A stretch of DNA of 40,314 nucleotides from a virus (IMGVR_UViG_2541047163_000016); one strand, 5' to 3'. Shown: positions 5,580 to 40,314, counted from the first letter of the stretch. The notes: generated by a model from the sequence alone, not told the origin. A program made the numbers and translations.

Positions 5580-5924
5580 ACTGTAAACAGGGCCGCGAAT
5601 GCCCTGCCATCGAACGGAGCGGCTGTTGCAGCGAATAAACTCGCCACTCCAAGAAATATTAATGGTGTCCCATTTGACGGAACGCAGGATATAAATATTA
5701 CATCGGGGATGACGCAGTCTGTGGCTGACTCACGTTATGTTCAAAGCATTCGAAGAGGTTCAAGGTCAACGATTGGAATGCAATATAATATTTTTGAGGT
5801 TCCTGACGGATGCGTACTTACAGGGCTTGATGTCGCTGGTGATGGTAATGCAACGGTAACCGCATATTATCGACCTGTTCAGTTTCTGATAGATGGTTCG
5901 TGGAAAACAGCTTCCAGCGCATAA
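5562..5924 (+). other. Promoterless alternative tail-fibre C-terminal cassette (S'v-like)
   Basis: In-frame from the stop at 5559-5561: GLRDTVNRAANALPS...ATPRNINGVPFDGTQDINITSGMTQSVADSRYVQ... parallels residues 178-240 of the expressed tail fibre and then diverges; ends ...YYRPVQFLIDGSWKTASSA. Confidence 0.6.
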
Positions 5925-6003
5925 AAGTGCAGTAGTTCAAAAAACAGATTATCTGAATAAATATATGATGATTTTGTCTTTTCAACAAAAACAAGGTGAA
6001 ATA

Positions 6004-28300: not shown

Positions 28301-28801
28301 TCAGACTTTCGGCAAGTCGTAGCGACATAACCATTCATCCGCCGAACGGCGGGCCTCAAGGCCGGGGAGTTTCACCCCCTTTGAATAAATCCAGCGGATA
28401 TACTGCTTACAGGACGCGGGCATCTGCCCGGCATTGATCAGGCGCAGAAGCGTGGAGTTGCGAAAGTTCGTTTCACCGGCCCAGAAGATCCACGAAGCCA
28501 GCGCCACCGTCTGACCACGGGTAAGCGGCACCTGAACACGCCGATCAATGGCCGCAAAGGCCCATTTCATGTCCTTTTCCAGTAGTTCCAGGCATTCTTC
28601 ATCTGTCAGGGTCATACCCGGTTTCACATCCGGGCCGGTATGGCCGTAACAGATGGTGGGTGTACCGGTGGGATCGATATACGTGGAGTTTTCTTTCCCT
28701 TCCCAGTAACCGGTGTAATGCGTGGCAATCGTGAACGTCCCGGCACCGGCCAGAACAAGGGCAATCAGCTTTTTACGCAGTGGTGCGGGGAGTTTTGGCA
28801 T
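28301..28801 (-). CDS. Endolysin, lysozyme (GH24-like) with N-terminal signal-anchor-release-like segment
   Basis: YIDPTGTPTICYGHTG...GMTLTDEECLELLEKDM...VPLTRGQTVAL resembles P22/T4-type lysozymes (recalled); residues 12-27 LIALVLAGAGTFTIAT form a weakly hydrophobic Ala/Gly-rich segment. Confidence 0.85.
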   Translation of the reverse strand: MPKLPAPLRKKLIALVLAGAGTFTIATHYTGYWEGKENSTYIDPTGTPTICYGHTGPDVKPGMTLTDEECLELLEKDMKWAFAAIDRRVQVPLTRGQTVALASWIFWAGETNFRNSTLLRLINAGQMPASCKQYIRWIYSKGVKLPGLEARRSADEWLCRYDLPKV

Positions 28802-28872: not shown

Positions 28873-29298
28873 TCAGAAAAGTGGCGGTTGCGTTCTTACC
28901 AGATGCAGACGGCGCTGTTCGCGTATGACGGTATAAATCTGGGTTTCTGACATCCGGTAATGGCGGCGAAGGGATTCAATTTTCTCGCCCCGGTCCCAGC
29001 GCGAAAATATCTCATTGTTTCGCAGCTCGGCAAAGAGAGATTCCCCGACCGGCAGGTAATAACCCCGTCCGCCCATATAGGCGGCCTGAGCCGCAGCCAC
29101 CTTGCGTGCCAGTTTACCGGCCAGTACCGGCTCAATCCCCTGACGCTGAAGTTCTGCGCCGGTGACTTCAACCAGTTCTGACAGGGTCCGCGGCCAGTTC
29201 TTTTTGAGAACATCATCAGGGATGTCATCAAGGCGGTCGATAAGGGCGTGCAGTTGCTCACTGTCACCACCAAACATGCTCATCTGAGTTTCTGCCAT
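28873..29298 (-). CDS. mor: Mor/C-family transcriptional activator
   Basis: ATG preceded by GGAGG; C-terminal region ...LPVGESLFAELRNNEIFSRWDRGEKIESLRRHYRMSETQIYTVIREQRR parallels the recalled Mu Mor C-terminal helix-turn-helix region. Confidence 0.75.
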   Translation of the reverse strand: MAETQMSMFGGDSEQLHALIDRLDDIPDDVLKKNWPRTLSELVEVTGAELQRQGIEPVLAGKLARKVAAAQAAYMGGRGYYLPVGESLFAELRNNEIFSRWDRGEKIESLRRHYRMSETQIYTVIREQRRLHLVRTQPPLF

Positions 29299-29367
29299 AT
29301 CAGCCTCCGGTTCTCGCGTTCCCGGTAAGTTTAAAATAAAAATCCCGCGTTGTGGCGGGATTTGGAG

Positions 29368-29877
29368 TTAACGGGGAAGTGATTTTTCATACTGCCTGCA
29401 AACGGCGTCATACCCCATCAGCGTGCGTTCGGGCATTCCCATCGCGGCCAGCATTTTGCGGCGGTGCCATCGCTTGAGACGCTCCAGCACATCTGAGGCC
29501 AGGGCGGGGTGTTGCTCCAGCCACTGCCAGTTTGCCACACCTTCGCCGCCGTTCTGCGCGGCCGTCTGCGATTTCACCCAGCGGTTAAGGGCGGTTTCCG
29601 CACCATCGGTGATAAAGCCCTGCCGGTGCATCACCTTCCAGATGGCGCGAATTTTGGCGGTCACCGTACCCGGTTTTAAGGCCCGGTTAACCGGGTTCTG
29701 ACGCACTTTAAAACCGCGTTTTTTGAAAACATCCAGCACGCGGGATAACTCATCCGGTGACATATCCCGGCAGCTGGTTTTGCCGGTAGCTGCCAGCAGC
29801 GCGGATGTATAAGTCTCATCATCCAGGGCAAGCTCGCGCTTTGCCACATGAATGGCGGATATCAGTTTTCCTCTCAT
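29368..29877 (-). CDS. gemA: GemA-like protein (Mu gp16 family)
   Basis: 169-aa ORF immediately upstream of mor, as gemA is in Mu; AAGGT before the ATG. Assignment mainly by synteny and size. Confidence 0.55.
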   Translation of the reverse strand: MRGKLISAIHVAKRELALDDETYTSALLAATGKTSCRDMSPDELSRVLDVFKKRGFKVRQNPVNRALKPGTVTAKIRAIWKVMHRQGFITDGAETALNRWVKSQTAAQNGGEGVANWQWLEQHPALASDVLERLKRWHRRKMLAAMGMPERTLMGYDAVCRQYEKSLPR

Positions 29878-30170
29878 ACCGTATTTACCTTTTTACGGAC
29901 ATGGAAAGCCTTTTCTGCCTCATCCCACCGGGCATGGTGTGTTGGCGGAATAATCATTATGTGCCAGCCATCTCTGCTTGTTATTCGGCAGAAAAATTCA
30001 CCGTTATATAACACAATGGCCTGCTGAATGAGCGCATCAGCCGCCCGTTCAACCGGATGTCTTTTATCAAAAAAGCAGATGATTTTTCGACATAACCACC
30101 GGGTAATAACAAATGCGCCGAAAAAGGATGTGATATATAAGCACCAGAACAACAGAGAACTATTGTCCAT
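29874..30170 (-). CDS. Hypothetical early protein with N-terminal hydrophobic segment
   Basis: 98-aa ORF with verified ATG; LLFWCLYITSFFGAFVITRWL suggests a membrane anchor. Confidence 0.45.
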   Translation of the reverse strand: MDNSSLLFWCLYITSFFGAFVITRWLCRKIICFFDKRHPVERAADALIQQAIVLYNGEFFCRITSRDGWHIMIIPPTHHARWDEAEKAFHVRKKVNTV

Positions 30171-30357
30171 TATCTTTCTCCTTATTCACTCTTCTGCGGC
30201 ATTCGGCACAGTCATCAGGGCTTTCAAATGTATCCGGCTCGCGATTATGAGCCAGATATAACCACCGTCCACATATACTGATATTTTCGCCTGTTTTAAA
30301 AAAATGATGCTTCCTGGCCATTAGTGGCCGCGCCCATCCAGCGGGTAGACTATTCAT
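30160..30357 (-). CDS. Hypothetical small early protein, Cys-containing
   Basis: 65-aa ORF with verified ATG; cysteines at ...SICGRW... and ...DDCAECRRR.... Confidence 0.4.
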   Translation of the reverse strand: MNSLPAGWARPLMARKHHFFKTGENISICGRWLYLAHNREPDTFESPDDCAECRRRVNKEKDNGQ

Positions 30358-30685
30358 TTGCTTTATCCTCCATGCTGGACAGAATCATATGTATTAATGT
30401 CGGGCGTGGAGATATACGCATTTCATTAAGCGTCTGAAGGGCAGCAACAGCTGCCTGTTTATCGGTGCCTTTGGCAATTTCAGCAAGAGAATGCACAATC
30501 CATAACGGGCTTAACGCTACGGCTGAATGCAGAATCATGTCATCCATAATAATTTCTGGCATATCCCGTTTGTCACATTCTTTATCCATAAAAGAAACGA
30601 TTTTTTCTGCATCTTCCGGTTTCATGCCTCCGGCGATGAGAATTTTACGATATTCATAAGACGATCTTAATTCAATACTCATCAT
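30350..30685 (-). CDS. Hypothetical early protein
   Basis: 111-aa ORF, AGGTGA before the ATG. Confidence 0.5.
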   Translation of the reverse strand: MMSIELRSSYEYRKILIAGGMKPEDAEKIVSFMDKECDKRDMPEIIMDDMILHSAVALSPLWIVHSLAEIAKGTDKQAAVAALQTLNEMRISPRPTLIHMILSSMEDKANE

Positions 30686-30697
30686 TCACCTGCCTGT

Positions 30698-31066
30698 TTA
30701 ATCAGTTTCCAGTGCTTTGCTACGGGCAACAGCCTCACACTCAAAAAATACCGACTCCGGCACACGCTCCTTTAATTCACGAACAAGAAAATCATTAACG
30801 AGTTCATGACGTCTTATATTTCTTTCCTTTTCCTCCTGGCGCAATACAGCAAGGCGGTATTCAACAGTCCGGCGTTGTTTCTGAAAGACAGCCAGTGCTT
30901 TTCTGGCAGAGTTACGCAATGTATCATCGCCACAGGGTTCGTATTCAAGCTGAAATTTAATCTCTTCAATGGTTTCTTTTATTTTTGCCAGCAAGCTAAG
31001 ACAGTCGCTGATTGTCTTCAGTTTTTCATTATCAATATAACTTCTCACGCATTCACCTCCCGTCAT
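30698..31066 (-). CDS. Hypothetical early protein
   Basis: ATG at 31066 overlaps the upstream stop (ATGA); the track start at 31090 is GTG inside the upstream gene. Confidence 0.45.
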   Translation of the reverse strand: MTGGECVRSYIDNEKLKTISDCLSLLAKIKETIEEIKFQLEYEPCGDDTLRNSARKALAVFQKQRRTVEYRLAVLRQEEKERNIRRHELVNDFLVRELKERVPESVFFECEAVARSKALETD

Positions 31067-31374
31067 TCCGGTAAAGCTGAAATATGGCACCAGTGCGTCA
31101 CCTGTCCGTCCTCATCTTCAAGGCAGGCTCCGGTTTCTTCATCAATAAAAAAGCCTTCATACCCCATATGGCCGATGCGCAGTTCCTGTTGGTCACCATA
31201 CTGAACAATCAGCACGACAGCCTCCATATCAGGCGGGAAAGCATCATTCAGTGAATGCCAGGGATAACCGCGCAAATCCCCGAAATAAACACCGGTCAGC
31301 GTTCCGCCACAGACCGGCATTCCGACGGCACACACAAGGGGTTCATCTGATTCAACAAATAATGTCGTTATCAT
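31063..31374 (-). CDS. Hypothetical early protein
   Basis: 103-aa acidic ORF with verified ATG. Confidence 0.5.
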   Translation of the reverse strand: MITTLFVESDEPLVCAVGMPVCGGTLTGVYFGDLRGYPWHSLNDAFPPDMEAVVLIVQYGDQQELRIGHMGYEGFFIDEETGACLEDEDGQVTHWCHISALPE

Positions 31375-31922
31375 GGCATTAATTCCCGTAATACAACATC
31401 TTCGGCAGTCCGACGACGGTGATAAATAAAACTCACCGTGCCCTCGGATAATTCAAATTTCTCGCCGATTTCCCTAAAGGTAAGACGCCGTGGTGATTCA
31501 GCATCCCGTAATTCACGAATAAGACGAACATCATCGTCAGGTATGCGGGTGAAGGGCAGCAACTCTCCGTATTTTTTCATGCTTACGCCAATATATCGCG
31601 CCCGATTGTGGACAGAATCCCGGTCTCGCCCCAGATATTCTCCTATTTGCTTACCGGTCATTGTTCTGGCATTTTTTCGGATAAATTTATCTTCATCAGG
31701 TTTAAATCTGAGGCGTTTGCATTTGAGCAACTCCGGGTAAGTACCGCGTAATAAAACAATCCGGTTATGTACACCCCAGAAACTTCTTTTTATCCTGACA
31801 GCAATATCCTTAACCGGGGTGGATGGATAAAGCGCAATCAGCAGCGCATCTTCTTCAGGTGTCCATGCGCGAACATGAGCGGGTGCACGGCCTTTTCTCC
31901 CCATGGGTTGTAATATCATCAT
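31371..31922 (-). CDS. Putative DNA-binding protein with two Myb/SANT-like repeats and a C-terminal helix-turn-helix
   Basis: Repeat 1 WTPEEDALLIALY...FWGVHNR; repeat 2 FKPDEDKFIRKNAR...DSVHNRARY; C-terminus LTFREIGEKFELSEGTVSFIYHRR resembles sigma-70 region 4/LuxR-type HTH. Confidence 0.45.
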   Translation of the reverse strand: MMILQPMGRKGRAPAHVRAWTPEEDALLIALYPSTPVKDIAVRIKRSFWGVHNRIVLLRGTYPELLKCKRLRFKPDEDKFIRKNARTMTGKQIGEYLGRDRDSVHNRARYIGVSMKKYGELLPFTRIPDDDVRLIRELRDAESPRRLTFREIGEKFELSEGTVSFIYHRRRTAEDVVLRELMP

Positions 31923-31925
31923 GCA

Positions 31926-32441
31926 TCACCCCCTGACTCGCTTTTCAGCAGCATAAAACTCATCAGACAGAATTTCGGTCATTTTCTGATTTGCGGGTTT
32001 TACGCCGCACTCAAGGTAAATCACATCGTCAACGCAGAACCACTTCACAGGGCCAAACATGATTGCCGAGAAATCAATACCCAGCCAGAACAACAGTGCA
32101 TCGGTTCTGGCATACGTGACGGGCGAATATTCACGCCACAGACTGTTAAGTTCGTCAGAGGCAACGCGCAGGGCTTTGGGAATACGTGATGTGCGCGGTG
32201 TGCAGCTCCAGCCATTCGACGCAGTCGGTTTTCGCCATAAGTCGCGATGAAAAGGATATTTGTCATCCATAAAGCGCAGCCCTTTAAAACAAAAGCCACT
32301 GATACCGGATACAAATACCGACCGGCACGCAACATTCAGCACGGCCTCAAGGCGTTTTGCCTCATCCTTAACTTTCTGGCAGTCCTGCTGATATTTTTGC
32401 CACGCGGCCAGCGCGGAAGGGTTTGATGTTTTAAAGAACAT
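31926..32441 (-). CDS. Hypothetical early protein
   Basis: 171-aa ORF; stop/start overlaps with neighbours. Confidence 0.5.
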   Translation of the reverse strand: MFFKTSNPSALAAWQKYQQDCQKVKDEAKRLEAVLNVACRSVFVSGISGFCFKGLRFMDDKYPFHRDLWRKPTASNGWSCTPRTSRIPKALRVASDELNSLWREYSPVTYARTDALLFWLGIDFSAIMFGPVKWFCVDDVIYLECGVKPANQKMTEILSDEFYAAEKRVRG

Positions 32442-32974
32442 TACGCCACCTCCGCAGATATCCCGGCAGGCGCGGCCGTCCGGTCAACAATCAGGTAACG
32501 CAGAACGCGCGAGGTGATATTCCAGCCGCTTAAACCGCAGATAATGACACCCAGGCGTATGTCGATATACGCCATCACAAACTGGGGCACGCCTTCTTTC
32601 ATGGCCTGCTCATCAACTTCAGCCACCACATAAACGGTTTCACAGGTCAGAACGCCCTGAGCAAATTCCCACGCCATTGACGGAATATCATGCCCCTCAA
32701 TCCACGGCAGGGATTTTCTGAAGCTGCACCACTGAACATCATCAGCCGCACCTTCCTGGCTGCATTTGCGACGAACCGGCTGCACCGGGCGGGGACGCGG
32801 AATATCATAAAAACCGTTACATTCCGTCAGCACCCCGGCATCGACCGCATCACGCAGAAAATAAACCATCGAGGATGGCGGCATATTCATTTTTTCAGCC
32901 AGAATGCCGCAGGTCAGACGCCCGTAAATACTCAGCCAGTTTTTAACCCCTTCAAGCACTTTTGCACCAATCAT
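32441..32974 (-). CDS. Hypothetical early protein
   Basis: 177-aa ORF with verified ATG. Confidence 0.5.
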   Translation of the reverse strand: MIGAKVLEGVKNWLSIYGRLTCGILAEKMNMPPSSMVYFLRDAVDAGVLTECNGFYDIPRPRPVQPVRRKCSQEGAADDVQWCSFRKSLPWIEGHDIPSMAWEFAQGVLTCETVYVVAEVDEQAMKEGVPQFVMAYIDIRLGVIICGLSGWNITSRVLRYLIVDRTAAPAGISAEVA

Positions 32975-32977
32975 GAA

Positions 32978-33520
32978 TTATTCCTCCGTCAGCGCCACAT
33001 ATTCAGAATGTTTAATCTCCTGGCATTCTTCAGGAATACCCCCTTTTATTTCCCTGCCATAAGCGCCTACTTTAAACACCACGCACAGGGCATCACGGGA
33101 GAGCGACGGGGTCCACCAGGAGTCCATGTTAAACATGGAGGGGATTCTCATTACCCCCAGCTTTTCACAGAGCCAGACAAGGAAATCAGGACGCTTTCTT
33201 AACTCGCGTTCAGCGGCTTCAATCATTGCGGCAATCGCCGGTCCTTCAGGGCATGACTCATCAGGTCTGGCAATAAAGCACGGTCCGTCCCCGATAAAAG
33301 CCACATCATCGCGCTTACGCCAGCCCGCAGGCAGAGCACCAGAAAAATAAAACTCACTGATTACGTCCATGGCAAACGGCTTTAAGCGCAATCCGGCAGC
33401 GCCTGTATTTTTCAGTAATGCCCGAAGAATACTGTTGCGTAGCGGTAAAACAGTCTGTTGATATTTGGTGAAATATTTATTTGTCTGCACACGGTCTAAT
33501 TTGAAATAAAAATATGCCAT
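32978..33520 (-). CDS. Hypothetical early protein
   Basis: 180-aa ORF, AAGGAACAGG before the ATG. Confidence 0.5.
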   Translation of the reverse strand: MAYFYFKLDRVQTNKYFTKYQQTVLPLRNSILRALLKNTGAAGLRLKPFAMDVISEFYFSGALPAGWRKRDDVAFIGDGPCFIARPDESCPEGPAIAAMIEAAERELRKRPDFLVWLCEKLGVMRIPSMFNMDSWWTPSLSRDALCVVFKVGAYGREIKGGIPEECQEIKHSEYVALTEE

Positions 33521-33617
33521 ATATCCTGTTCCTTATTTTCAGTTTACAGGCGCAGGCAGTCCCCTGACGCGAGCGCCATACTTAAAACGATGTGATATTT
33601 AAAGATTTAATGCGGTG

Positions 33618-34148
33618 TTATTTATTCAGTCCGGCGTCCTGTTCAAAAGGCTCGACATAAAAACTTTCAGCGCCTTTATTCACCTTAATACCGGCAATGC
33701 CTTTCACTGCATCCGGCTCCGCTAGGACCGCTTCCTTGTTCACTTCCTCTTTCGTGCGGATGAATCGCTCAAGCCCCATACGGCGCAGCATTTCAATCAC
33801 ACCTTCCACATCACGGCTGACGCTGCATGATGGATTTCCCAGCCGCCATGACACTGTTCCGGTGGTCAGATTGGCTGTTTTGGTTTTGCCGCCGTTCGTC
33901 AGCTCATCGCGGTTGGTTTTGCACCAGTCCTGAATCCCCTTAAAAAGCACTTTGATTTCTTTTTTAAGGTTTTCAATCTGCGGCGTATAACGGGCGGTGA
34001 TTTCTGCCACTTCATCATTCATCGCCGTTTCCAGCCGTAGCGCCTCTCGCTGAATATCGCCCAGGGTACGGATATCGCGGCTGACTTCTTCGCGGGTCTG
34101 CGGTGCAGCCTCGGCTGCGGCCTTTAATTTTGTAACACGTTTAGCCAT
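33618..34148 (-). CDS. gam: Gam-like host-nuclease inhibitor (DNA end-binding, Ku-like)
   Basis: ...LGDIQREALRLETAMNDEVAEIT...CKTNRDELTNGGKTKTANLTTGTVSWR...LERFIRTKEEVNKEAVLAEP... closely parallels the recalled Mu Gam sequence; AAGGA before the ATG. Confidence 0.9.
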   Translation of the reverse strand: MAKRVTKLKAAAEAAPQTREEVSRDIRTLGDIQREALRLETAMNDEVAEITARYTPQIENLKKEIKVLFKGIQDWCKTNRDELTNGGKTKTANLTTGTVSWRLGNPSCSVSRDVEGVIEMLRRMGLERFIRTKEEVNKEAVLAEPDAVKGIAGIKVNKGAESFYVEPFEQDAGLNK

Positions 34149-34159
34149 TTTGTTTTTCC

Positions 34160-34453
34160 TTATTGCAGTGTGCCTGATGCTTTATGCACGCGGTGGCGTT
34201 TAATGATGGCATCCGCCCCAAAAGCCTGTACAGATGCCTGAAATTCCGCTGAGAGAAACTGAATAATTTCAGGACTGTGATACTGGAGAATACTTGCATA
34301 AACGCCACAGAGTGACGTCGGCCTGTTATTCGTATCACGTTCTGTTTTTACATCCACACCAATCTTTTCATGCACTTCAACACAGTCATTGCCTGCCGGT
34401 TTTTCGTCATGCGAAACATGCTTAAATTCAAAAATAACGCGTACTTTGCTCAT
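34160..34453 (-). CDS. Small early protein, paralogue 2 of a tandem pair
   Basis: ATG at 34453; N-terminus MSKVRVIFEFKHVSHDE parallels the upstream gene's MSKVVRIIFEYKEHVIHKN. Confidence 0.5.
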   Translation of the reverse strand: MSKVRVIFEFKHVSHDEKPAGNDCVEVHEKIGVDVKTERDTNNRPTSLCGVYASILQYHSPEIIQFLSAEFQASVQAFGADAIIKRHRVHKASGTLQ

Positions 34454-34457
34454 GGAA

Positions 34458-34730
34458 TTACCCCTGCTGATTAAATTCATTACCTTTAATAACCCCGGAA
34501 CGCATGCTCATATCTTTCATGAGCGCACTGGCTTTCATTGCCACAAGTTCAGCAAAGTCTCTGCTTTCCGCGAGCATAACCACCCCAAAAATCATGGCGG
34601 GTCCATCACCTTTCTGCTTTATCCCGGTTGAACGTATGTCCAGACTTACCCCCATGCGCACTGTTCCATCAGCGTTTTTATGGATAACGTGCTCCTTGTA
34701 TTCGAAAATAATGCGTACGACTTTACTCAT
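34458..34730 (-). CDS. Small early protein, paralogue 1 of a tandem pair
   Basis: 90-aa ORF with verified ATG; shares N-terminal motif with gene 34160-34453. Confidence 0.5.
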   Translation of the reverse strand: MSKVVRIIFEYKEHVIHKNADGTVRMGVSLDIRSTGIKQKGDGPAMIFGVVMLAESRDFAELVAMKASALMKDMSMRSGVIKGNEFNQQG

Positions 34731-35008
34731 CCTCTGGTCCTCGTTCTGTTTGGATAACTGACCCGGCGTCTGACCTCACGGCAGAACCGAATCATGGCAT
34801 TAAAGGCTTCTTCCTCCGTCACCGCTTCCGGTATCCCCGGAACCAGTAACTGCTCCTGTTCATCACGTCCATGACGCGCCATAACCTCAATCACATGCCG
34901 TACCGTGGCAGGCTTTCCGGCAACTATCGGCAATGCACCTTCCGGCAGGACGTAACCAAACTCAATAAGACCACTCGACCACGCCCATGCAATGAGATTT
35001 TTTTTCAC
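34727..35008 (-). CDS. Hypothetical early protein
   Basis: 93-aa ORF, GTG start preceded by GGAGGTG. Confidence 0.45.
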   Translation of the reverse strand: MKKNLIAWAWSSGLIEFGYVLPEGALPIVAGKPATVRHVIEVMARHGRDEQEQLLVPGIPEAVTEEEAFNAMIRFCREVRRRVSYPNRTRTRG

Positions 35009-35009
35009 C

Positions 35010-35264
35010 TCACACCTCCCAGTAAACCGTGCAGCCGCTGATGCGGGTGGCCTTCACACGGCGGCGCAGGCCGTTGGTCTGTATGGTGATTTCAATTTCA
35101 CCGGTTCCCTGCACGTTGCCTACCGGCGGCGTGGTTTTCAGTGCAAAACGTTGCGGATAGCGCTTACTGCGTTCCAGTACCGCACCGGCAAGTTCGGTCA
35201 GACGGCGCGCGCTGTTCAGGGAGTCGAATAAATTCATTTTGTTACCGCAGGATTGCATATTCAT
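35010..35264 (-). CDS. Hypothetical early protein
   Basis: ATG at 35264 preceded by GAGGTG; the track start at 35276 has no ribosome-binding site. Confidence 0.45.
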   Translation of the reverse strand: MNMQSCGNKMNLFDSLNSARRLTELAGAVLERSKRYPQRFALKTTPPVGNVQGTGEIEITIQTNGLRRRVKATRISGCTVYWEV

Positions 35265-35276
35265 ATAACACCTCAT

Positions 35277-35504
35277 TTAGCTGACTTGTTTCGCACCAAC
35301 AGAACGGCATATTCCGCTGTAAACGTCTGTCGCACCTTCGCGATCAAGTCCGGCAGATATCACCATTCGTGTGCGGTCATTAAATTCAAAAAGTAAATCG
35401 CCACATTCTTTATTTTCGGCCAGTGAAATCACCTTCACGTTATCGAAATTAACCAGGTAAAAGCGTCCGTAAATATCAGGAATATTAAATACCGCCATAA
35501 TCAC
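35277..35504 (-). CDS. Small early protein immediately downstream of B (position of Mu kil)
   Basis: 75-aa ORF; size and position match Mu kil, but no sequence-based support. Confidence 0.45.
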   Translation of the reverse strand: MIMAVFNIPDIYGRFYLVNFDNVKVISLAENKECGDLLFEFNDRTRMVISAGLDREGATDVYSGICRSVGAKQVS

Positions 35505-36433
35505 ACCTGTGAGAGTAATTCAGGGTTGGTATAAACCTCTTTAAAGGCCGCATTAATATGTTTTTCTGTCAGCGCCGCGCCTTCACCGCTGGCGGTGAGC
35601 CACGCCTGGTTAAGCGTATGTGTCAGAACGCGTAACGCTCCCGGCTTTTCAGCGATAGCCTGCATGACGGCCAGCTCGGCCTCACCACTGATCCCCCACG
35701 CCCTGGCAATGGCCAGCACATCCGCCTTTTTGGCCTTGCGAAGTTGTTTTGTACGGGCAAGACGGCTGAACAGGCGCGATAAATCATCAAAGGCGCGGCG
35801 TCCACCTTTAAACAATCCGCGCGGGTTACCAATAAGCACCATCCCGATCCCCGTGGCGTCCTGAATTGCCCGGAGTTGCTCCAGACCGTCAATACCCAGA
35901 TGATCCGCCTCATCCACAATCACCAGTCCACGCGTTCCCATCAGGCGACGGCGGATGGCGCGGGATAATGCCCCTTTGTTCGCGCGGGTGTAATCAATCC
36001 CCAGCGCATCGGCCAGCTCCAGCAGACACTCCGTGACGCTGGAGTGCGCGGGTGACAGGGTGATCATCCAGGTGTTTGGTTGCTCCTGGCAGTAATTACG
36101 GGCAGTGGCCGTTTTACCCACACCCGGTACGCCCACAATAACGTTAATACAGCCCATCAGACGAACCGCCTGAAACAGTGCGCGCAGCTCCTGGACTGTC
36201 TGCGTTTCCACAAACTGCGGCGGTTCCGGCAGTGCGCTTTGTTTATTCCAGTTTTCATACCAGGAACGCAGGGAAGCAGCCACAGCGGCGTTATCGCCTT
36301 TATATTTCCCCTTGCGGAAAGCCGATAATGTGCCGTCGGAAATTCCCGCCTCTCTGGCGATGGCATACTGCGTCAGTACGCCGCCATCAATAAGTTCATC
36401 AATGGTCTTGATTACATCGTTAATATCAGTCAT
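35501..36433 (-). CDS. B: Transposition ATPase / target DNA activator B (MuB-like)
   Basis: ...EPPQFVETQTV...VGVPGVGKTATARNY...TWMITLSPAHSSVTECLLELA...LVIVDEADHLG...AEKPGALRVLTHTL closely parallels the recalled MuB sequence including the Walker A motif; ATG preceded by GAGAGG. Confidence 0.9.
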   Translation of the reverse strand: MTDINDVIKTIDELIDGGVLTQYAIAREAGISDGTLSAFRKGKYKGDNAAVAASLRSWYENWNKQSALPEPPQFVETQTVQELRALFQAVRLMGCINVIVGVPGVGKTATARNYCQEQPNTWMITLSPAHSSVTECLLELADALGIDYTRANKGALSRAIRRRLMGTRGLVIVDEADHLGIDGLEQLRAIQDATGIGMVLIGNPRGLFKGGRRAFDDLSRLFSRLARTKQLRKAKKADVLAIARAWGISGEAELAVMQAIAEKPGALRVLTHTLNQAWLTASGEGAALTEKHINAAFKEVYTNPELLSQV

Positions 36434-36504: not shown

Positions 36505-38595
36505 TCAGGCCAGCGGGTCATTTTCTTTTAATTTCGCTTCCAGCAACTGCAATCCCCGCTGGAAATTACGCTCGTATTCTTCATCAGGTTCATCGTCAGC
36601 GACCGGTTGCTGAACGGTCACCGTATTACCCACAGGGCGGTATATGTTTTCCAGCCAGGGCTCCTGCGGCTTGTGCTCCAGCACGTTGACAACCTCATCC
36701 TCGGCATCACGGATTTTTTCCTCTGCGCGTTTACGCATGCCTTTAAGGCGTTGCTGCTGTTTGTAGTATTCCGCGCTGACCGGGAAGGCTTCGCGTTTAT
36801 TGCCGTCCCATACCGCCTCGCAAATCACGCTGCCATCCAGGCGACGTACGGTAATTCGTTCGGCATCATGAATGTCATAGCTGATAAGCACCTTACGGCC
36901 ATGCTCGTCACGCAGCTCGGGCGCGTAGTAAATATTATTCAGCCAGCGTATTTCACAGCGTCTTACAGGGCGTTCCACCATCGGCCGGAACATATCCCGC
37001 AGCTCAACATCGGACAGCCATTCAATTTCCGTGTCCTCTTCCGCCAGGCGTTTTTTTCTGAACTCCGCCGGGCTGTAATGCTTGCCGTTCGGCTTCACCG
37101 GTAATTCATCGTGCGGCCGGTTGTTGTACCACTCAACACCGTCACGAATGGCATCAATCAGTTCAGACCAGGACGGTAAATCACGCATCGCTGACTGCTG
37201 CCGGGCGTTCAGCCGTTTGCCCTGTTGCAGGGCAGTAAATGCCGAGCGTAAATCGCGGTTGGTTTTGCGTAACGTCTCGCGATCTGCACCTTTCCCGAAA
37301 TAGGTGCGGTATTTACGGGCTATGCGCATCGGTAATGTGCGGTTAAGCCGTTCGATAATGCCTCGTCCCTGCGGATTACCGGCAATCCCGGTCGGGTGAT
37401 TAATCCCCAGTCGCGGCAGTATCCCCACAACCTCCTTATCCAGGATGTCGGCGGTTTCCCCGGAGCCGTTATCCGAGTAATACAGAAACGGTTTGCCGTG
37501 ATGGCGAATGCCGTGCTGTATGGCACCGGCTACGGCGAAAACATTTTCAGCCAGGTCAAGGCTCCAGCCCACCACAAAGCGCGTGCCACCGTCGATAACA
37601 AAGGTCACTTCCGGTGCAAATGGCCGACCGTGAACCGGGTGTGCGCATTTCAGCTTCATGCCGTGACCGTCACCAATCCAGACATAATTCACCGGCATTC
37701 TGGACCAGTCGCGGCGCGTGAATCCCTCAAGCTGGCGGTATTCACTGCCGGTCACCCGGCCTTTTTGTTTCACCACTTCCGGCAGTTTCTTCATTGCGCG
37801 GCGAATGGTGTCATAAGACGGCATGATATCGAGCATATAAGGCTCATCAGCGTGCCGGTGCTGCCATTCAGCGACAAAATCCTCGTAAGCCTCGGTCATT
37901 GGTCGGCCGTTTGACTGGCGATACTGCGCCAGAAATTCGGGCAGCCAGTTAATATCTTCGGCTTTTATTTCCTGGCGCTTACCCGGTGCCAGTAAAAGCA
38001 GGCGTTCAGCGGCGTTCTGCGCCTTGTTAAAGGCCGCAATCCAGCGTTTCAGCGTGATTTCACTTAACGCGCGGCTGTTTCCCTTTTTGGCGTTCGCCGT
38101 CTCAACCATTGCCACAATGCGCTCGTCCAGCTGCGAACGTGCCAGGTTGTCAACGATAAACCGGATAGCCTTCGCACAGCTGAAACCAGGTTGTTGCGCG
38201 ACTTTCAGAACTTCGCTGACGATCGCGATTCGTGCATCAGCCACCTGGCGCTGGTTTTCAGTCAGGGCATTAAGGCGTTCGACCATCAGTTGTGGTGATC
38301 CGCGATATGCCTCCACCGCATCAACCACGGCAGGCGAGCGTCTGGCCTTTGTCACCACTGGAGCCGGTGATTCATCGACTTTTTGAGTCATCAGTTGCAG
38401 GGCGTAGCGTTCACGTAATGCCTGCTGCGTCACTTCAGGTAAACAGTCGATGCTGTATTCAGTTGCTTTAGAGCCTGAGCGACGACGGGAACAACAGCTT
38501 TTCCCTTGTACGTAACGTTGTAATGCCTGGCGAATACCTTTTGTTGTAGCAGGCATTCCGGGCGCGCCAATCAGTTCTTTTGCAATGACATACAT
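36505..38595 (-). CDS. A: DDE transposase A (MuA-like)
   Basis: 696-aa ORF directly after ner with GAGAAAGG before the ATG; central region with WIGDGHG... and DNG motifs resembles the MuA catalytic core. Confidence 0.9.
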   Translation of the reverse strand: MYVIAKELIGAPGMPATTKGIRQALQRYVQGKSCCSRRRSGSKATEYSIDCLPEVTQQALRERYALQLMTQKVDESPAPVVTKARRSPAVVDAVEAYRGSPQLMVERLNALTENQRQVADARIAIVSEVLKVAQQPGFSCAKAIRFIVDNLARSQLDERIVAMVETANAKKGNSRALSEITLKRWIAAFNKAQNAAERLLLLAPGKRQEIKAEDINWLPEFLAQYRQSNGRPMTEAYEDFVAEWQHRHADEPYMLDIMPSYDTIRRAMKKLPEVVKQKGRVTGSEYRQLEGFTRRDWSRMPVNYVWIGDGHGMKLKCAHPVHGRPFAPEVTFVIDGGTRFVVGWSLDLAENVFAVAGAIQHGIRHHGKPFLYYSDNGSGETADILDKEVVGILPRLGINHPTGIAGNPQGRGIIERLNRTLPMRIARKYRTYFGKGADRETLRKTNRDLRSAFTALQQGKRLNARQQSAMRDLPSWSELIDAIRDGVEWYNNRPHDELPVKPNGKHYSPAEFRKKRLAEEDTEIEWLSDVELRDMFRPMVERPVRRCEIRWLNNIYYAPELRDEHGRKVLISYDIHDAERITVRRLDGSVICEAVWDGNKREAFPVSAEYYKQQQRLKGMRKRAEEKIRDAEDEVVNVLEHKPQEPWLENIYRPVGNTVTVQQPVADDEPDEEYERNFQRGLQLLEAKLKENDPLA

Positions 38596-38596
38596 A

Positions 38597-38845
38597 TCAT
38601 GACGCCTTTCTCATATAGCTCTTAACCTGGTATCGACTGGGCCAGATTTCTTCAGGCGATACCCCAAGAGCATCAGCAATTATTTGCTGATACGGTCGGC
38701 AAGGAGTACGTAATACGCTTTTCAGCGAATCCCTGCTGTAACCAGCCTTTAAAGATAAAGAGCGCAGTGATAAGCCAGCCATGTGTAAGCGCGCCTTGAT
38801 GATTTCAGGCGGCCAATCGTGATCTGAAACTTCTCTTCTACTCAT
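38597..38845 (-). CDS. ner: Ner-like DNA-binding protein
   Basis: ...LSLRSLSLKAGYSRDSLKSVL...QQIIADALGVSPEEIWPSRYQ parallels the recalled Mu Ner/Nlp family sequence; first gene of the early operon, divergent from the repressor. Confidence 0.85.
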   Translation of the reverse strand: MSRREVSDHDWPPEIIKARLHMAGLSLRSLSLKAGYSRDSLKSVLRTPCRPYQQIIADALGVSPEEIWPSRYQVKSYMRKAS

Positions 38846-39012
38846 ACTTCCTCTATTCTAAAAAGTTACCCGCGCGGATATTCGTGCGGATATCTGTACG
38901 GGTAAATAATAGAACAAACAAAAGAACCAAATCAAGGTATTTTGTTCTTTTTATTCTTTGCGGTGTTTTTGTTATTAATATCAATAAGATAAATACAAAG
39001 GAACCTGAGAGC
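38846..39012. promoter_or_regulatory. Divergent early control region (operators and promoters for repressor and ner-A-B)
   Basis: 167-bp gap between divergent starts; direct repeats GCGGATAT at 38874-38881 and 38886-38893; 7-bp inverted repeat TTACCCG (38866-38872) / CGGGTAA (38899-38905); AT-rich tract 38940-38990. Confidence 0.5.
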
Positions 39013-39597
39013 ATGAACATGAAAAACAGTTCTTTTCTCGACGAAGGAAAAGAACCAGTGATCGAACGGATTTTTCGTCTTGCAGAGCGTTACAAATCGA
39101 GAAGTGAGGCGGCTAGAGCATGGGGAATAAACGTTCAGACATTGCAGAACTACTACAAAAGGAGAAACAATCAGCCGCCACCACAACCAAGAAAGCACCA
39201 TCTCCAGAACATTGCAGAAAGAGAACATGTATCTATGGAGTGGCTAGTCAATGGTTATGGTGATGAGCCAAGCATGAAAAAAGAACCAATTGAACAAACA
39301 AAAAGAACAAAAAAACAAAGAATTGATGATAGTGATTCCATCATCATGAGGGCGTGGGACTCGCTAACTTCATCTGAACAAGAGATTTTGTCCAACTTAT
39401 TGATCAGAAAAGGGGCCGAACTACTAACCGTTTTGCTTGATACAGATATTCAAAAACTGCACTCATTGAGCGGAGTCAAAAGAGCACTAGCATTGAGTCT
39501 ACAAGAGTTACCCGATGATACTGTAAGAGAGATTTATGAAGAATGTGAAGCTAAGGTTAATCATTTAAATGTAACCCAGAAAAAGGCTGGTGCGTAA
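39013..39597 (+). CDS. Repressor (Mu c functional analogue) with N-terminal helix-turn-helix
   Basis: ATG at 39013 with AAAGGA 9 nt upstream (track start 38884 is GTG inside the operator region); N-terminal ...RSEAARAWGINVQTLQNYYKRR looks like an HTH; divergent from ner, at the left end as Mu c is. Confidence 0.7.
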   Translation: MNMKNSSFLDEGKEPVIERIFRLAERYKSRSEAARAWGINVQTLQNYYKRRNNQPPPQPRKHHLQNIAEREHVSMEWLVNGYGDEPSMKKEPIEQTKRTKKQRIDDSDSIIMRAWDSLTSSEQEILSNLLIRKGAELLTVLLDTDIQKLHSLSGVKRALALSLQELPDDTVREIYEECEAKVNHLNVTQKKAGA

Positions 39598-39694: not shown

Positions 39695-39869
39695 GTAGTA
39701 TCAAAAGTTTTGCCGATTTTAGAATAAACGATTAATTATTGCACAATCGGTATCAAATAGACTTTAAGCGCTCATCCAGACATCACCTGTTTTATTTCAG
39801 TATCTTACAGGTGATTTCACCTCCTTTCACTAAAACCCTCGTTGGTATCAAATGATTCACCTGGTTACA
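39695..39869. repeat. Left-end (repressor-proximal) cluster of putative transposase-binding repeats
   Basis: GGTATCAAA at 39844-39852 and 39749-39757, GTATCAAAA at 39698-39706 (reverse complement of the right-end TTTGATACC), spread over ~170 bp like L1-L3 of Mu attL. Confidence 0.5.
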
Positions 39870-39908
39870 AATGGCGCCTTTTTTATTGCAGAAAAGCGAG
39901 AGGTAATT

Positions 39909-40314
39909 ATGCGTAAACTTTATGCCGCCATTTTGTCCGCAGCCATCTGTCTGGCCGTATCCGGCGCGCCTGCATGGGCGTCTGAGCAGCAGGCCACGCT
40001 GAGCGCGGGGTATCTTCATGCCCGGACGAGCGCTCCCGGTAGCGATAATCTTAACGGGATTAACGTGAAATACCGTTATGAATTTACGGACACGCTGGGG
40101 CTGGTGACGTCATTCAGCTATGCAGGAGACAAGAATCGCCAGCTTACCCGTTACAGCGATACCCGCTGGCATGAAGATTCCGTCGTAACCGCTGGTTCAG
40201 CGTAATGGCGGGGCCGTCTGTGCGCGTGAATGAATGGTTCAGCGCGTATGCGATGGCGGGTGTGGCTTACAGCCGTGTGTCGACTTTCTCCGGGGATTAT
40301 CTCCGCGTAACTGA
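39909..40314 (+). pseudogene. lom: lom-like outer membrane protein gene (Ail/Lom/PagC family), frame change near 40175-40182, 3' end outside window
   Basis: Signal peptide MRKLYAAILSAAICLAVSGAPAWA and ...GINVKYRYEFTD... in frame 0 to the stop at 40203; the protein continues in frame 2 (RFRRNRWFSVMAGPSVRVNEWFSAYAMAGVAYSR...), paralleling the recalled lambda Lom sequence. Confidence 0.6.

Follow-up and report, generated by a model that had tools for sequence, protein, structure and literature searches.

What does a Mu-like transposable prophage of Shiga-toxin-producing Escherichia coli carry between B, the gene for its target-DNA activator, and gemA? We addressed this question in IMGVR_UViG_2541047163_000016, a viral DNA of 40,314 nucleotides (the window), in which a block of about 5.6 kb (29874-35504) separates the two genes. 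An initial annotation, made from the sequence, had described this block as an early accessory region of some 15 uncharacterised, tightly packed and often translationally coupled small genes, in which only gam was recognisable, and had regarded the equivalent region of transposable phages as a known site of host-takeover and anti-defence genes. We found exactly 15 genes. The block is likely to be the semi-essential early (SE) region of a Mu-like transposable prophage, in which a backbone layer common with Mu would be combined with a layer of cassettes exchanged between near-identical prophages.

Results

The block is an unbroken chain of fifteen genes

The listing of open reading frames (ORFs) and the analysis of their junctions revealed a chain of 15 ORFs on the minus strand, o1 to o15, running without breaks from 35504 to 29874 with B upstream and gemA downstream (Table 1). 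The same 15 genes are called by PGAP/RefSeq (Prokaryotic Genome Annotation Pipeline) in the chromosome of E. coli O157:H7 strain F1273, which is 100% identical to the 5.6-kb block; their RefSeq names there are 'hypothetical' for 13, Gam for one and 'DNA-binding protein' for one. With the PGAP starts, the intergenic spacing ranges from -11 to +15 nucleotides, the exception being a 97-nucleotide spacer 3' of gam. The coupled junctions of the initial annotation were confirmed, with ATGA stop/start overlaps at o3/o4, o10/o11 and o15/gemA and a TAATG junction at o8/o9; longer overlaps occur at o13/o14 (8 nucleotides) and o14/o15 (11 nucleotides). Each of the 15 ORFs matched a PHROG family (E 1e-32 to 1e-104), and for each of them the ratio of non-synonymous to synonymous substitution rates (dN/dS) against diverged alleles was below 1, with medians of 0.07-0.45 and the highest values for o5 (0.45) and o7 (0.44). 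Because every ORF has both a PHROG match and a dN/dS below 1, these are genes and not chance ORFs, and all 15 are real genes under purifying selection.

Seven genes and the overall plan are common with Mu

Seven of the 15 ORFs (o2, o4, o5, o6, o8, o9 and o10) have counterparts in Mu, and an eighth, o7, is a relative of DUF5420, so that gam is far from being the only recognisable gene. Gam, here o6, is a Ku-like DNA-end-binding protein that shields linear DNA from host exonuclease. The o6 protein passes the Pfam gathering score (142 bits against a cut-off of 28.3) over profile positions 1-149 of 149. The gp11 homologue o8 carries Gp11_C in its C-terminal part (135.5 bits against a gathering cut-off of 27), and its N-terminal third is winged-helix-like, the sole PDB match being a weak, MarR-like one (E 0.83). 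All homologues of o9, the gp12 counterpart, belong to PF26885, and all come from E. coli and Salmonella. The BLASTP match of o2 to Mu Kil is weak (33% across 39 residues, E 2e-4); a protein identical to o2 bears the PGAP name 'Kil protein family' in newer RefSeq. The paralogue pair mentioned in the initial annotation is almost certainly o4 and o5, which match each other with E 0.02 by BLAST and E 1.3e-4 by hhalign and have a common MSKV-R-IFE-K N-terminus. Of the two, o5 is related to the Mu gp7 group with an hhalign probability of 93.7% (E 1.9e-7), and the link of o4 to that group is weak (E 2e-3). The second paralogue evolves fast, its alleles being 60-100% identical at the dN/dS of 0.45 given above.

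The Myb-like protein of the initial annotation corresponds to o10, of which residues 66-166 are related to Mu gp9 (BLASTP E 4e-8). Three helix-turn-helix (HTH)-like repeats were seen in it by eye and by a weak self-BLAST. The Myb label itself held up less well, with Pfam Myb matches at 16.9 bits, below the curated gathering cut-offs of 24.4 and 22.9; the best HTH match, to Sigma70_r4, was also sub-threshold (23.3 bits against 24.1). A relative that is 72% identical is named 'SANT/Myb-like' by PGAP, and the o10 alleles fall into two classes, of about 73% and 87-100% identity. The o10 product is probably a DNA-binding protein. The literature searches turned up no work on the function of gp11, gp12, DUF5420 or the o3 family.

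The gene order c, ner, A, B, Gam, GemA, Mor, lysozyme, as assigned by Pfam and BLASTP, is that of Mu, and the 15 block genes share the strand of ner, A and B. The likeness to the Mu SE region (kil to gp15) comprises position, strand, tight packing and flanks, with B upstream and gemA and mor downstream, together with homologous Kil, gp7, gp9-related, Gam, gp11 and gp12 proteins and a hairpin after gam. In Mu, the SE region is reported to contain 14 ORFs, to be included in a long early transcript with A and B, and to have host-lethal functions (PMC3325207). The block differs from Mu in having 15 genes rather than 11 between B and gemA, an additional gene (o1) between B and kil, a duplicated gp7 (o4/o5), a gp9 relative that lies within a longer three-repeat protein positioned after gp12, and a terminator-like site between gemA and mor. 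Relatives of gp6, gp8, gp13, gp14 and gp15 are absent from the window, but gp8-, gp13- and gp14-like cassettes do occur in sister prophages of this element. The prophage type is present in 233 of 5426 complete E. coli genomes and is also recorded as an 'inserted Mu-like phage' within two Shiga-toxin (Stx) phage records. Sp18 is the only Mu-like prophage described for O157 Sakai and was judged intact and Mu-like (PMC2669165). We infer that the present element is an Sp18-type, intact-looking Mu-like transposable prophage.

Gene content varies at particular slots between near-identical prophages

To compare gene content among related prophages, as the initial annotation had proposed, 81 related loci were fetched with B as the anchor and each ORF was tabulated by tblastn. 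A greedy ORF map mis-drops some overlapping genes (for example o11 in locus L003), and presence and absence were therefore taken from the tblastn matrix and the PGAP tables; the slot comparison was limited to prophages with a B protein 95-100% identical. In this set, Kil, Gam, gp11 and gp12 were always present and 89-100% identical. The o3 slot held a gene 94-100% identical or was replaced, which was the case in about one third of the close relatives, and the o7 slot was found in three states, namely with the allele of the window, with a DUF5420 allele only 23-24% identical to it, or empty. Discrete alleles of 49-100% identity were found for o1, o4, o5, o10 and o15. At least five configurations were observed at the distal end: o11-o12-o13-o14-o15 as in the window; a 61-residue hydrophobic protein replacing o11-o12; o11-o12 and a shorter o13 ahead of a DUF2513 gene on the reverse strand; o11 with relatives of Mu gp13 and gp14 behind it; and o11 directly adjoining o15. 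Thus, the description of the block as an accessory early region of a transposable phage was borne out, in that its content varies between near-identical prophages at o3, o7 and o11-o15 and it is not made of core transposition genes. The pattern at these slots fits accessory cassettes. Natural relatives lack o3, o7, o11-o12 or o14-o15, and this suggests that the variable genes may be dispensable for lytic growth under laboratory conditions. Across complete E. coli genomes, B was counted in 233, o7 in 214, full-length o11-o12 in 123 and full-length o13-o15 in 157, and the ORFs are conserved at 92-100% across hundreds of genomes.

A conserved core with regions of genomic plasticity (RGPs), nine in number (A-I), has been described for Mu-like phages of Pseudomonas (PMC4378225). 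The P. aeruginosa D3112/DMS3/JBD group resembles the present prophages in combining a core with short variable ORFs in fixed slots, often of low GC content (PMC4378225), and the P. aeruginosa phages also have the o3 family near gam between B and gemA; in contrast, most of their other genes are unrelated. The GC content of the window is 0.43-0.47 across o10-o15 (30001-32000), compared to 0.55-0.59 in the late genes (8001-29000). The leftmost 7 kb of the window, at 0.44-0.51, are likewise lower in GC content than the late genes.

Several alternative occupants of these slots were noted in the relatives. The 61-residue, strongly hydrophobic protein (cassette c17; L016/L018, about 5757-5942), with a sequence beginning MIKRLVFFAIFVPVLGVGFIF, replaces o11 and o12 in most O157-type relatives, which is the commonest architecture, and probably has two membrane spans. 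The reverse-strand DUF2513 gene replaces o14-o15 upstream of gemA in E. coli AF39 (L003 6157-6504) and in L029 and L054-L059. As the only opposite-strand gene of the block, it is a candidate moron that the resting prophage would express. In Citrobacter- and Salmonella-type relatives (L004, L054-L059, L065 and others), the gam slot is occupied by a gene for a DUF3164 protein of about 210 residues (Pfam E 1e-78), with the same neighbours on both sides, which suggests that the gene for DNA-end protection has been functionally replaced.

Eight genes have no Mu counterpart

The ORFs without a Mu counterpart are o1, o3, o7, o11, o12, o13, o14 and o15. Several alleles of o1, 73-99% identical, occur among close relatives; a relationship between o1 and o3 was rejected, as the hhalign match spans 23 columns only. 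The o3 family adjoins gam in Pseudomonas Casadabanvirus (JBD69 gp14) and in Burkholderia transposable phages, with tblastn identities of 47-50% to JBD69 gp14, BcepMigl and KL4. Databases label o3 'host nuclease inhibitor'. No evidence behind this name was found, Pfam and PDB gave no match, and the name appears to be propagated annotation only. Among sequenced phages, o11 is confined to this prophage type, the tblastn matches being limited to the two Mu-like inserts. Its UniRef label 'DUF551' was reproduced by Pfam neither for o11 nor for its relatives and was rejected. Distant homologues of o13, 34% identical by tblastn, belong to the early regions of SfMu and Yersinia Mu-like phages.

The two remaining distal genes had been singled out in the initial annotation. 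Its Cys-rich protein of 65 residues is o14, to which the description hardly applies, as the protein has only three cysteines. Residues H18, C29, C50 and C53 do not vary among its remote homologues, which come from unrelated lytic phages. The o14 family is represented in 197 phage records, including those of the lytic Pbunavirus, Cedarrivervirus and Wifcevirus. The conserved residues suggest that o14 is probably a zinc knuckle, a small zinc-binding module moving between phage types. The membrane-anchored protein is o15, with an N-terminal hydrophobic 19-mer of mean Kyte-Doolittle value 1.82 followed by R/K. Comparison of o15 with the allele at L038 10210-10506 revealed a nearly identical anchor and diverged soluble parts at an overall identity of 49%, a pattern that resembles replacement of a domain or rapid evolution of the exposed part.

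o7 is a divergent DUF5420 relative and may be akin to o9

Pfam returned no match for o7, DUF5420 (PF17457) included, even at E 10. However, the alternative alleles in the o7 slot, 23-29% identical to o7, reach 49-50 bits on PF17457, a profile made from the o7-slot alleles retrieves more than 100 PF17457 proteins, and o7 aligns with DUF5420 proteins from end to end, with a nearly invariant C-terminal IKHSEF-A-TEE motif. Since o7 is tied to DUF5420 through intermediates only, it is filed as a divergent relative and not as a member by the Pfam rule. The o7 protein scores below the Pfam threshold for DUF5420; o9 is a clear member of PF26885. A cluster look-up that paired o4 with o5 and o7 with o8 was judged to be an artefact of the look-up and was not used.

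In the structure-based homology search proposed in the initial annotation, the AlphaFold2 models of o7 and o9 were confident but neither had a solved structural relative. The two models have a common order of elements, consisting of a short strand and a long helix, a strand hairpin with an insert, two or three helices, and three strands with a C-terminal helix; the insert after the strand hairpin is ordered in the o7 model and poorly predicted in the o9 model. A profile alignment of o7 and o9 was collinear over about 150 columns and not significant (hhalign E 0.015-0.17), and the cross-scores of their hidden Markov models were at noise level. As this alignment lacks significance, we put forward a shared origin for DUF5420 and Mu gp12 as a hypothesis and not as a result. 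From the models, DUF5420 (o7) and Mu gp12 (o9) may represent one previously unlinked fold family without a solved relative.

A conserved inverted repeat follows gam

The 97-nucleotide spacer after gam contains a GC-rich hairpin or inverted repeat with the conserved loop GCGTCAGGGGACTGC, the Mu copy of which lies at L001 6368-6399. The element is present in Mu and in every gam-bearing locus, and where the DUF3164 gene stands for gam it is found 3' of that gene, regardless of which gene comes next. Of the cells scored for pairing in the inverted repeat, 93% are paired, compared to 31-60% in slid controls, and there is one compensatory change from a C-G to a U-A pair. The element has no U-tract and no Rfam match, and Rfam gave no family match anywhere in the window. 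The spacer folds no better than shuffled sequence, and the identity between window and Mu over it (71-73%) is no lower than that of the flanking coding DNA. The element may act as a hairpin for RNA stability or processing, as an operator bound by a neighbouring DNA-binding protein, or as a linker for cassette recombination.

The block is most likely expressed as part of one early transcript

A consensus scan of the block for internal promoter-like and terminator-like sites revealed no excess over shuffled sequence, with seven promoter-like sites found compared to 9.4 expected. A single long early transcript, starting at the early promoter once the repressor is lost, would most likely carry all 15 genes. 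Because the basis of this single-operon model is the anatomy of the block and the analogy with Mu, we infer it and do not claim it as an observation. The hairpin with a T-run after gemA (Table 1) probably marks where the early operon ends, or else a site of attenuation. In the Mu record, the gemA and mor coding sequences overlap with no predicted terminator between them, and one is placed after mor. As the present element has a terminator-like site between gemA and mor and the Mu record has none, mor may be transcribed separately here.

Just past the repressor end of the prophage, an ORF on the plus strand (39852-40205) has a signal-peptide-like start and begins MRKLYAAILSAAICLAVSGAPAWA. By eye, it resembles an outer-membrane protein of the Ail/Lom/PagC type and is probably a flanking host or cargo gene.

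Table 1. Genes and other elements of the window, from the repressor to the lysozyme gene; positions are counted from the first letter of the window.
Feature	Position	Strand	Basis
Repressor c	38884-39597	+	BLASTP/Pfam assignment
ner	38597-38845	-	
Transposase A	36505-38595	-	
B, MuB-type AAA+ target-DNA activator, proximal block boundary	35501-36433	-	Pfam Phage-MuB_C and AAA_22; 48% identical to MuB
o1, 73 aa, inserted between B and kil	35277-35498	-	phrog_3375 E 9e-47; PGAP WP_000257930; dN/dS 0.17
o2, Kil family (homologue of Mu host-killing/septation-inhibition protein)	35010-35264	-	phrog_2679 'Kil' E 8e-46
o3, 93 aa	34727-35008	-	phrog_1518 E 4e-43
o4, 90 aa, first of tandem paralogue pair	34458-34730	-	phrog_4107
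o5, 97 aa, second paralogue, Mu gp7 homologue	34160-34453	-	phrog_2230
o6, Gam	33618-34148	-	Pfam Phage_Mu_Gam (PF07352) E 1.5e-41; 57% identical to full-length Mu Gam
GC-rich hairpin/inverted repeat in 97-nt post-gam spacer	33547-33577	-	TTTTAAGTAT then GGCGCTCGCGTCAGGGGACTGCCTGCGCC
o7, 180 aa, divergent DUF5420 superfamily relative	32978-33520	-	
o8, Mu gp11 homologue	32441-32974	-	Pfam Gp11_C (PF25754) E 8e-40; 67% identical to full-length Mu gp11
o9, Mu gp12 homologue (PF26885)	31926-32441	-	54% identical to Mu gp12
o10, 183 aa, basic (pI 10.2), three HTH/Myb-like repeats	31371-31922	-	phrog_323 E 6e-58
o11, 103 aa, very acidic (pI 4.1; D+E 18 vs K+R 2)	31063-31374	-	phrog_6925
o12, 116 aa, variable cassette	30698-31048	-	phrog_6158
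o13, 110 aa	30350-30682	-	phrog_1988
o14, 65 aa, only 3 Cys	30160-30357	-	phrog_2358
o15, 98 aa, N-terminal membrane anchor	29874-30170	-	phrog_17269; hydropathy
gemA, distal block boundary	29368-29877	-	Pfam GemA E 3e-30; 44% identical to Mu GemA; start overlaps o15 stop (ATGA)
Intrinsic-terminator-like hairpin and T-run	29340-29363	-	Consensus scan: 9-bp stem then TTATTTT; 4 nt past gemA stop
mor	28873-29298	-	
Lysozyme	28301-28801	-	

Discussion

We regard the SE region of a Mu-like transposable prophage as the likely identity of the block. On loss of repression, the early promoter would drive ner, A, B and the block together. The backbone layer common with Mu would comprise Kil, the two gp7-family paralogues, Gam, gp11, gp12 and the three-HTH gp9-related protein, and the layer exchanged between near-identical prophages would comprise the o1 alleles, o3, o7 (DUF5420), o11-o12 and o13-o15. 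Kil would arrest the host by killing it or blocking its division, Gam would bind the Mu DNA ends and guard them against exonuclease, and the putative DNA-binding proteins o8 and o10 would, with GemA, modulate the expression of host or phage genes. The exchangeable cassettes would be dispensable, and may adapt the phage to particular hosts by serving takeover, counter-defence or phage exclusion and not transposition itself.

Several points weigh against this account. The single-operon model on which it draws would stand on sequence and on the analogy with Mu, and some of the 'variable' genes may simply have been lost in decaying prophages and not actively exchanged. Beyond Kil and Gam, no ORF was given a function by any library or structure; the Pfam, NCBIfam, PADLOC and PDB-sequence searches, together with profile searches for o3, o7, o8, o9 and o10, produced as leads only Gam, Gp11_C and the sub-threshold HTH matches. 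The dN/dS values are ordinary, with no sign of positive selection. Finally, an early operon is repressed in the resting prophage, and roles in exclusion or lysogenic conversion would therefore be limited.

What the genes do is a matter on which different explanations compete. One holds that they mainly tune phage replication and transposition and the physiology of the host, in the manner of the arm, cim, lig and sot functions of Mu, by blocking division, changing the nucleoid and supercoiling, or hijacking DNA repair. This is quite possible, if somewhat short of probable. It would agree with the conservation of half of the block with Mu, with the presence of two or three likely DNA-binding proteins (o8, with its winged-helix-like N-terminus, and o10, with its three HTH repeats, among them), with the host-directed phenotypes of GemA and Kil given in the Mu record notes, and with the host-lethality of the Mu SE region (PMC3325207). 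However, it leaves unexplained why o3, o7 and o11-o15 come and go beside near-identical A/B machinery, and why o14 has relatives in lytic phages that do not transpose. Another explanation holds that the uncharacterised genes are mainly concerned with counter-defence, each cassette inhibiting particular E. coli immune systems (restriction, RecBCD-linked guards, retrons or abortive infection) and the slots turning over with the differing defence repertoires of the hosts. Cassette turnover between near-identical prophages, the low GC content of the distal cassettes and their place as early-expressed neighbours of Gam favour such a role, as do the acidity of o11 (pI 4.1), on a par with that of known DNA-mimic proteins, the movement of the o14 family between unrelated lytic phages, and the persistence of the o3 family beside gam in transposable phages of Pseudomonas and Burkholderia. 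Nevertheless, the sequence and fold searches matched no characterised anti-defence protein, and the 'host nuclease inhibitor' name of o3 is apparently propagated. The RGP G anti-CRISPR locus of Pseudomonas Mu-like phages lies in the late, head-gene module. In the Pseudomonas Mu-like phages studied, the anti-CRISPRs, which are the proven counter-defence genes there, sit in RGP G and not in the early block (PMC4378225). As an account of the block as a whole, we consider counter-defence doubtful though plausible.

A third explanation, in which a domesticated prophage retains many of its small ORFs only as decaying or non-functional remnants, could draw on the truncations or insertion sequences seen in some relatives (IS600 in H16) and on the finding that the prophage is chromosomal and not mitomycin-inducible (PMC2669165). 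It is very improbable, being largely refuted by the dN/dS below 1 of 15 intact ORFs, all under purifying selection, and by their 92-100% conservation across hundreds of genomes; moreover, the intactness of Sp18 (PMC2669165) speaks against it, as does a recent study in which a mutant strain had apparently lost the prophage (PMC13502914). Among characterised defence inhibitors, none but Gam was matched in Pfam, NCBIfam, PHROGs, PADLOC and PDB, which include no dedicated anti-defence library. As no anti-defence family was matched beyond Gam, the anti-defence reading is a reasonable hypothesis and not a finding. The initial description of such regions as known sites of anti-defence genes is only weakly true, the match to a family with a shown counter-defence role being Gam alone. 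That at least one cassette is a genuine defence inhibitor is a minority prospect in our estimation, and the best candidates for an inhibitor or exclusion factor are the acidic o11, the gam-adjacent o3 family, the His/Cys3 protein o14 and the anchored o15. In a wider reading, possible but less likely than not, at least one cassette would be a new inhibitor of an E. coli anti-phage system or a new exclusion factor, DUF5420 and gp12 may form one family, and the post-gam hairpin may act as a regulatory or processing signal, or as a recombination linker, in organising cassette exchange.

The block is a new gene set within a known kind of region, already contained in hundreds of public genomes and mostly annotated as hypothetical, and the finding alone brings no new mechanism. 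About 4% of the complete E. coli genomes carry Mu-like prophages, and many of these genomes belong to Shiga-toxin producers; within a classic model phage, no part is less well understood than the early accessory genes. Useful outputs of the analysis are the ranked variable cassettes, the possible DUF5420-gp12 link, the post-gam element and the His/Cys3 signature of o14. Together, these results suggest that the block is a reasonable, if unproven, place to seek host-takeover and anti-defence genes, for which the slot map, by telling exchangeable genes apart from those conserved with Mu, provides a short ranked list for takeover and counter-defence experiments.

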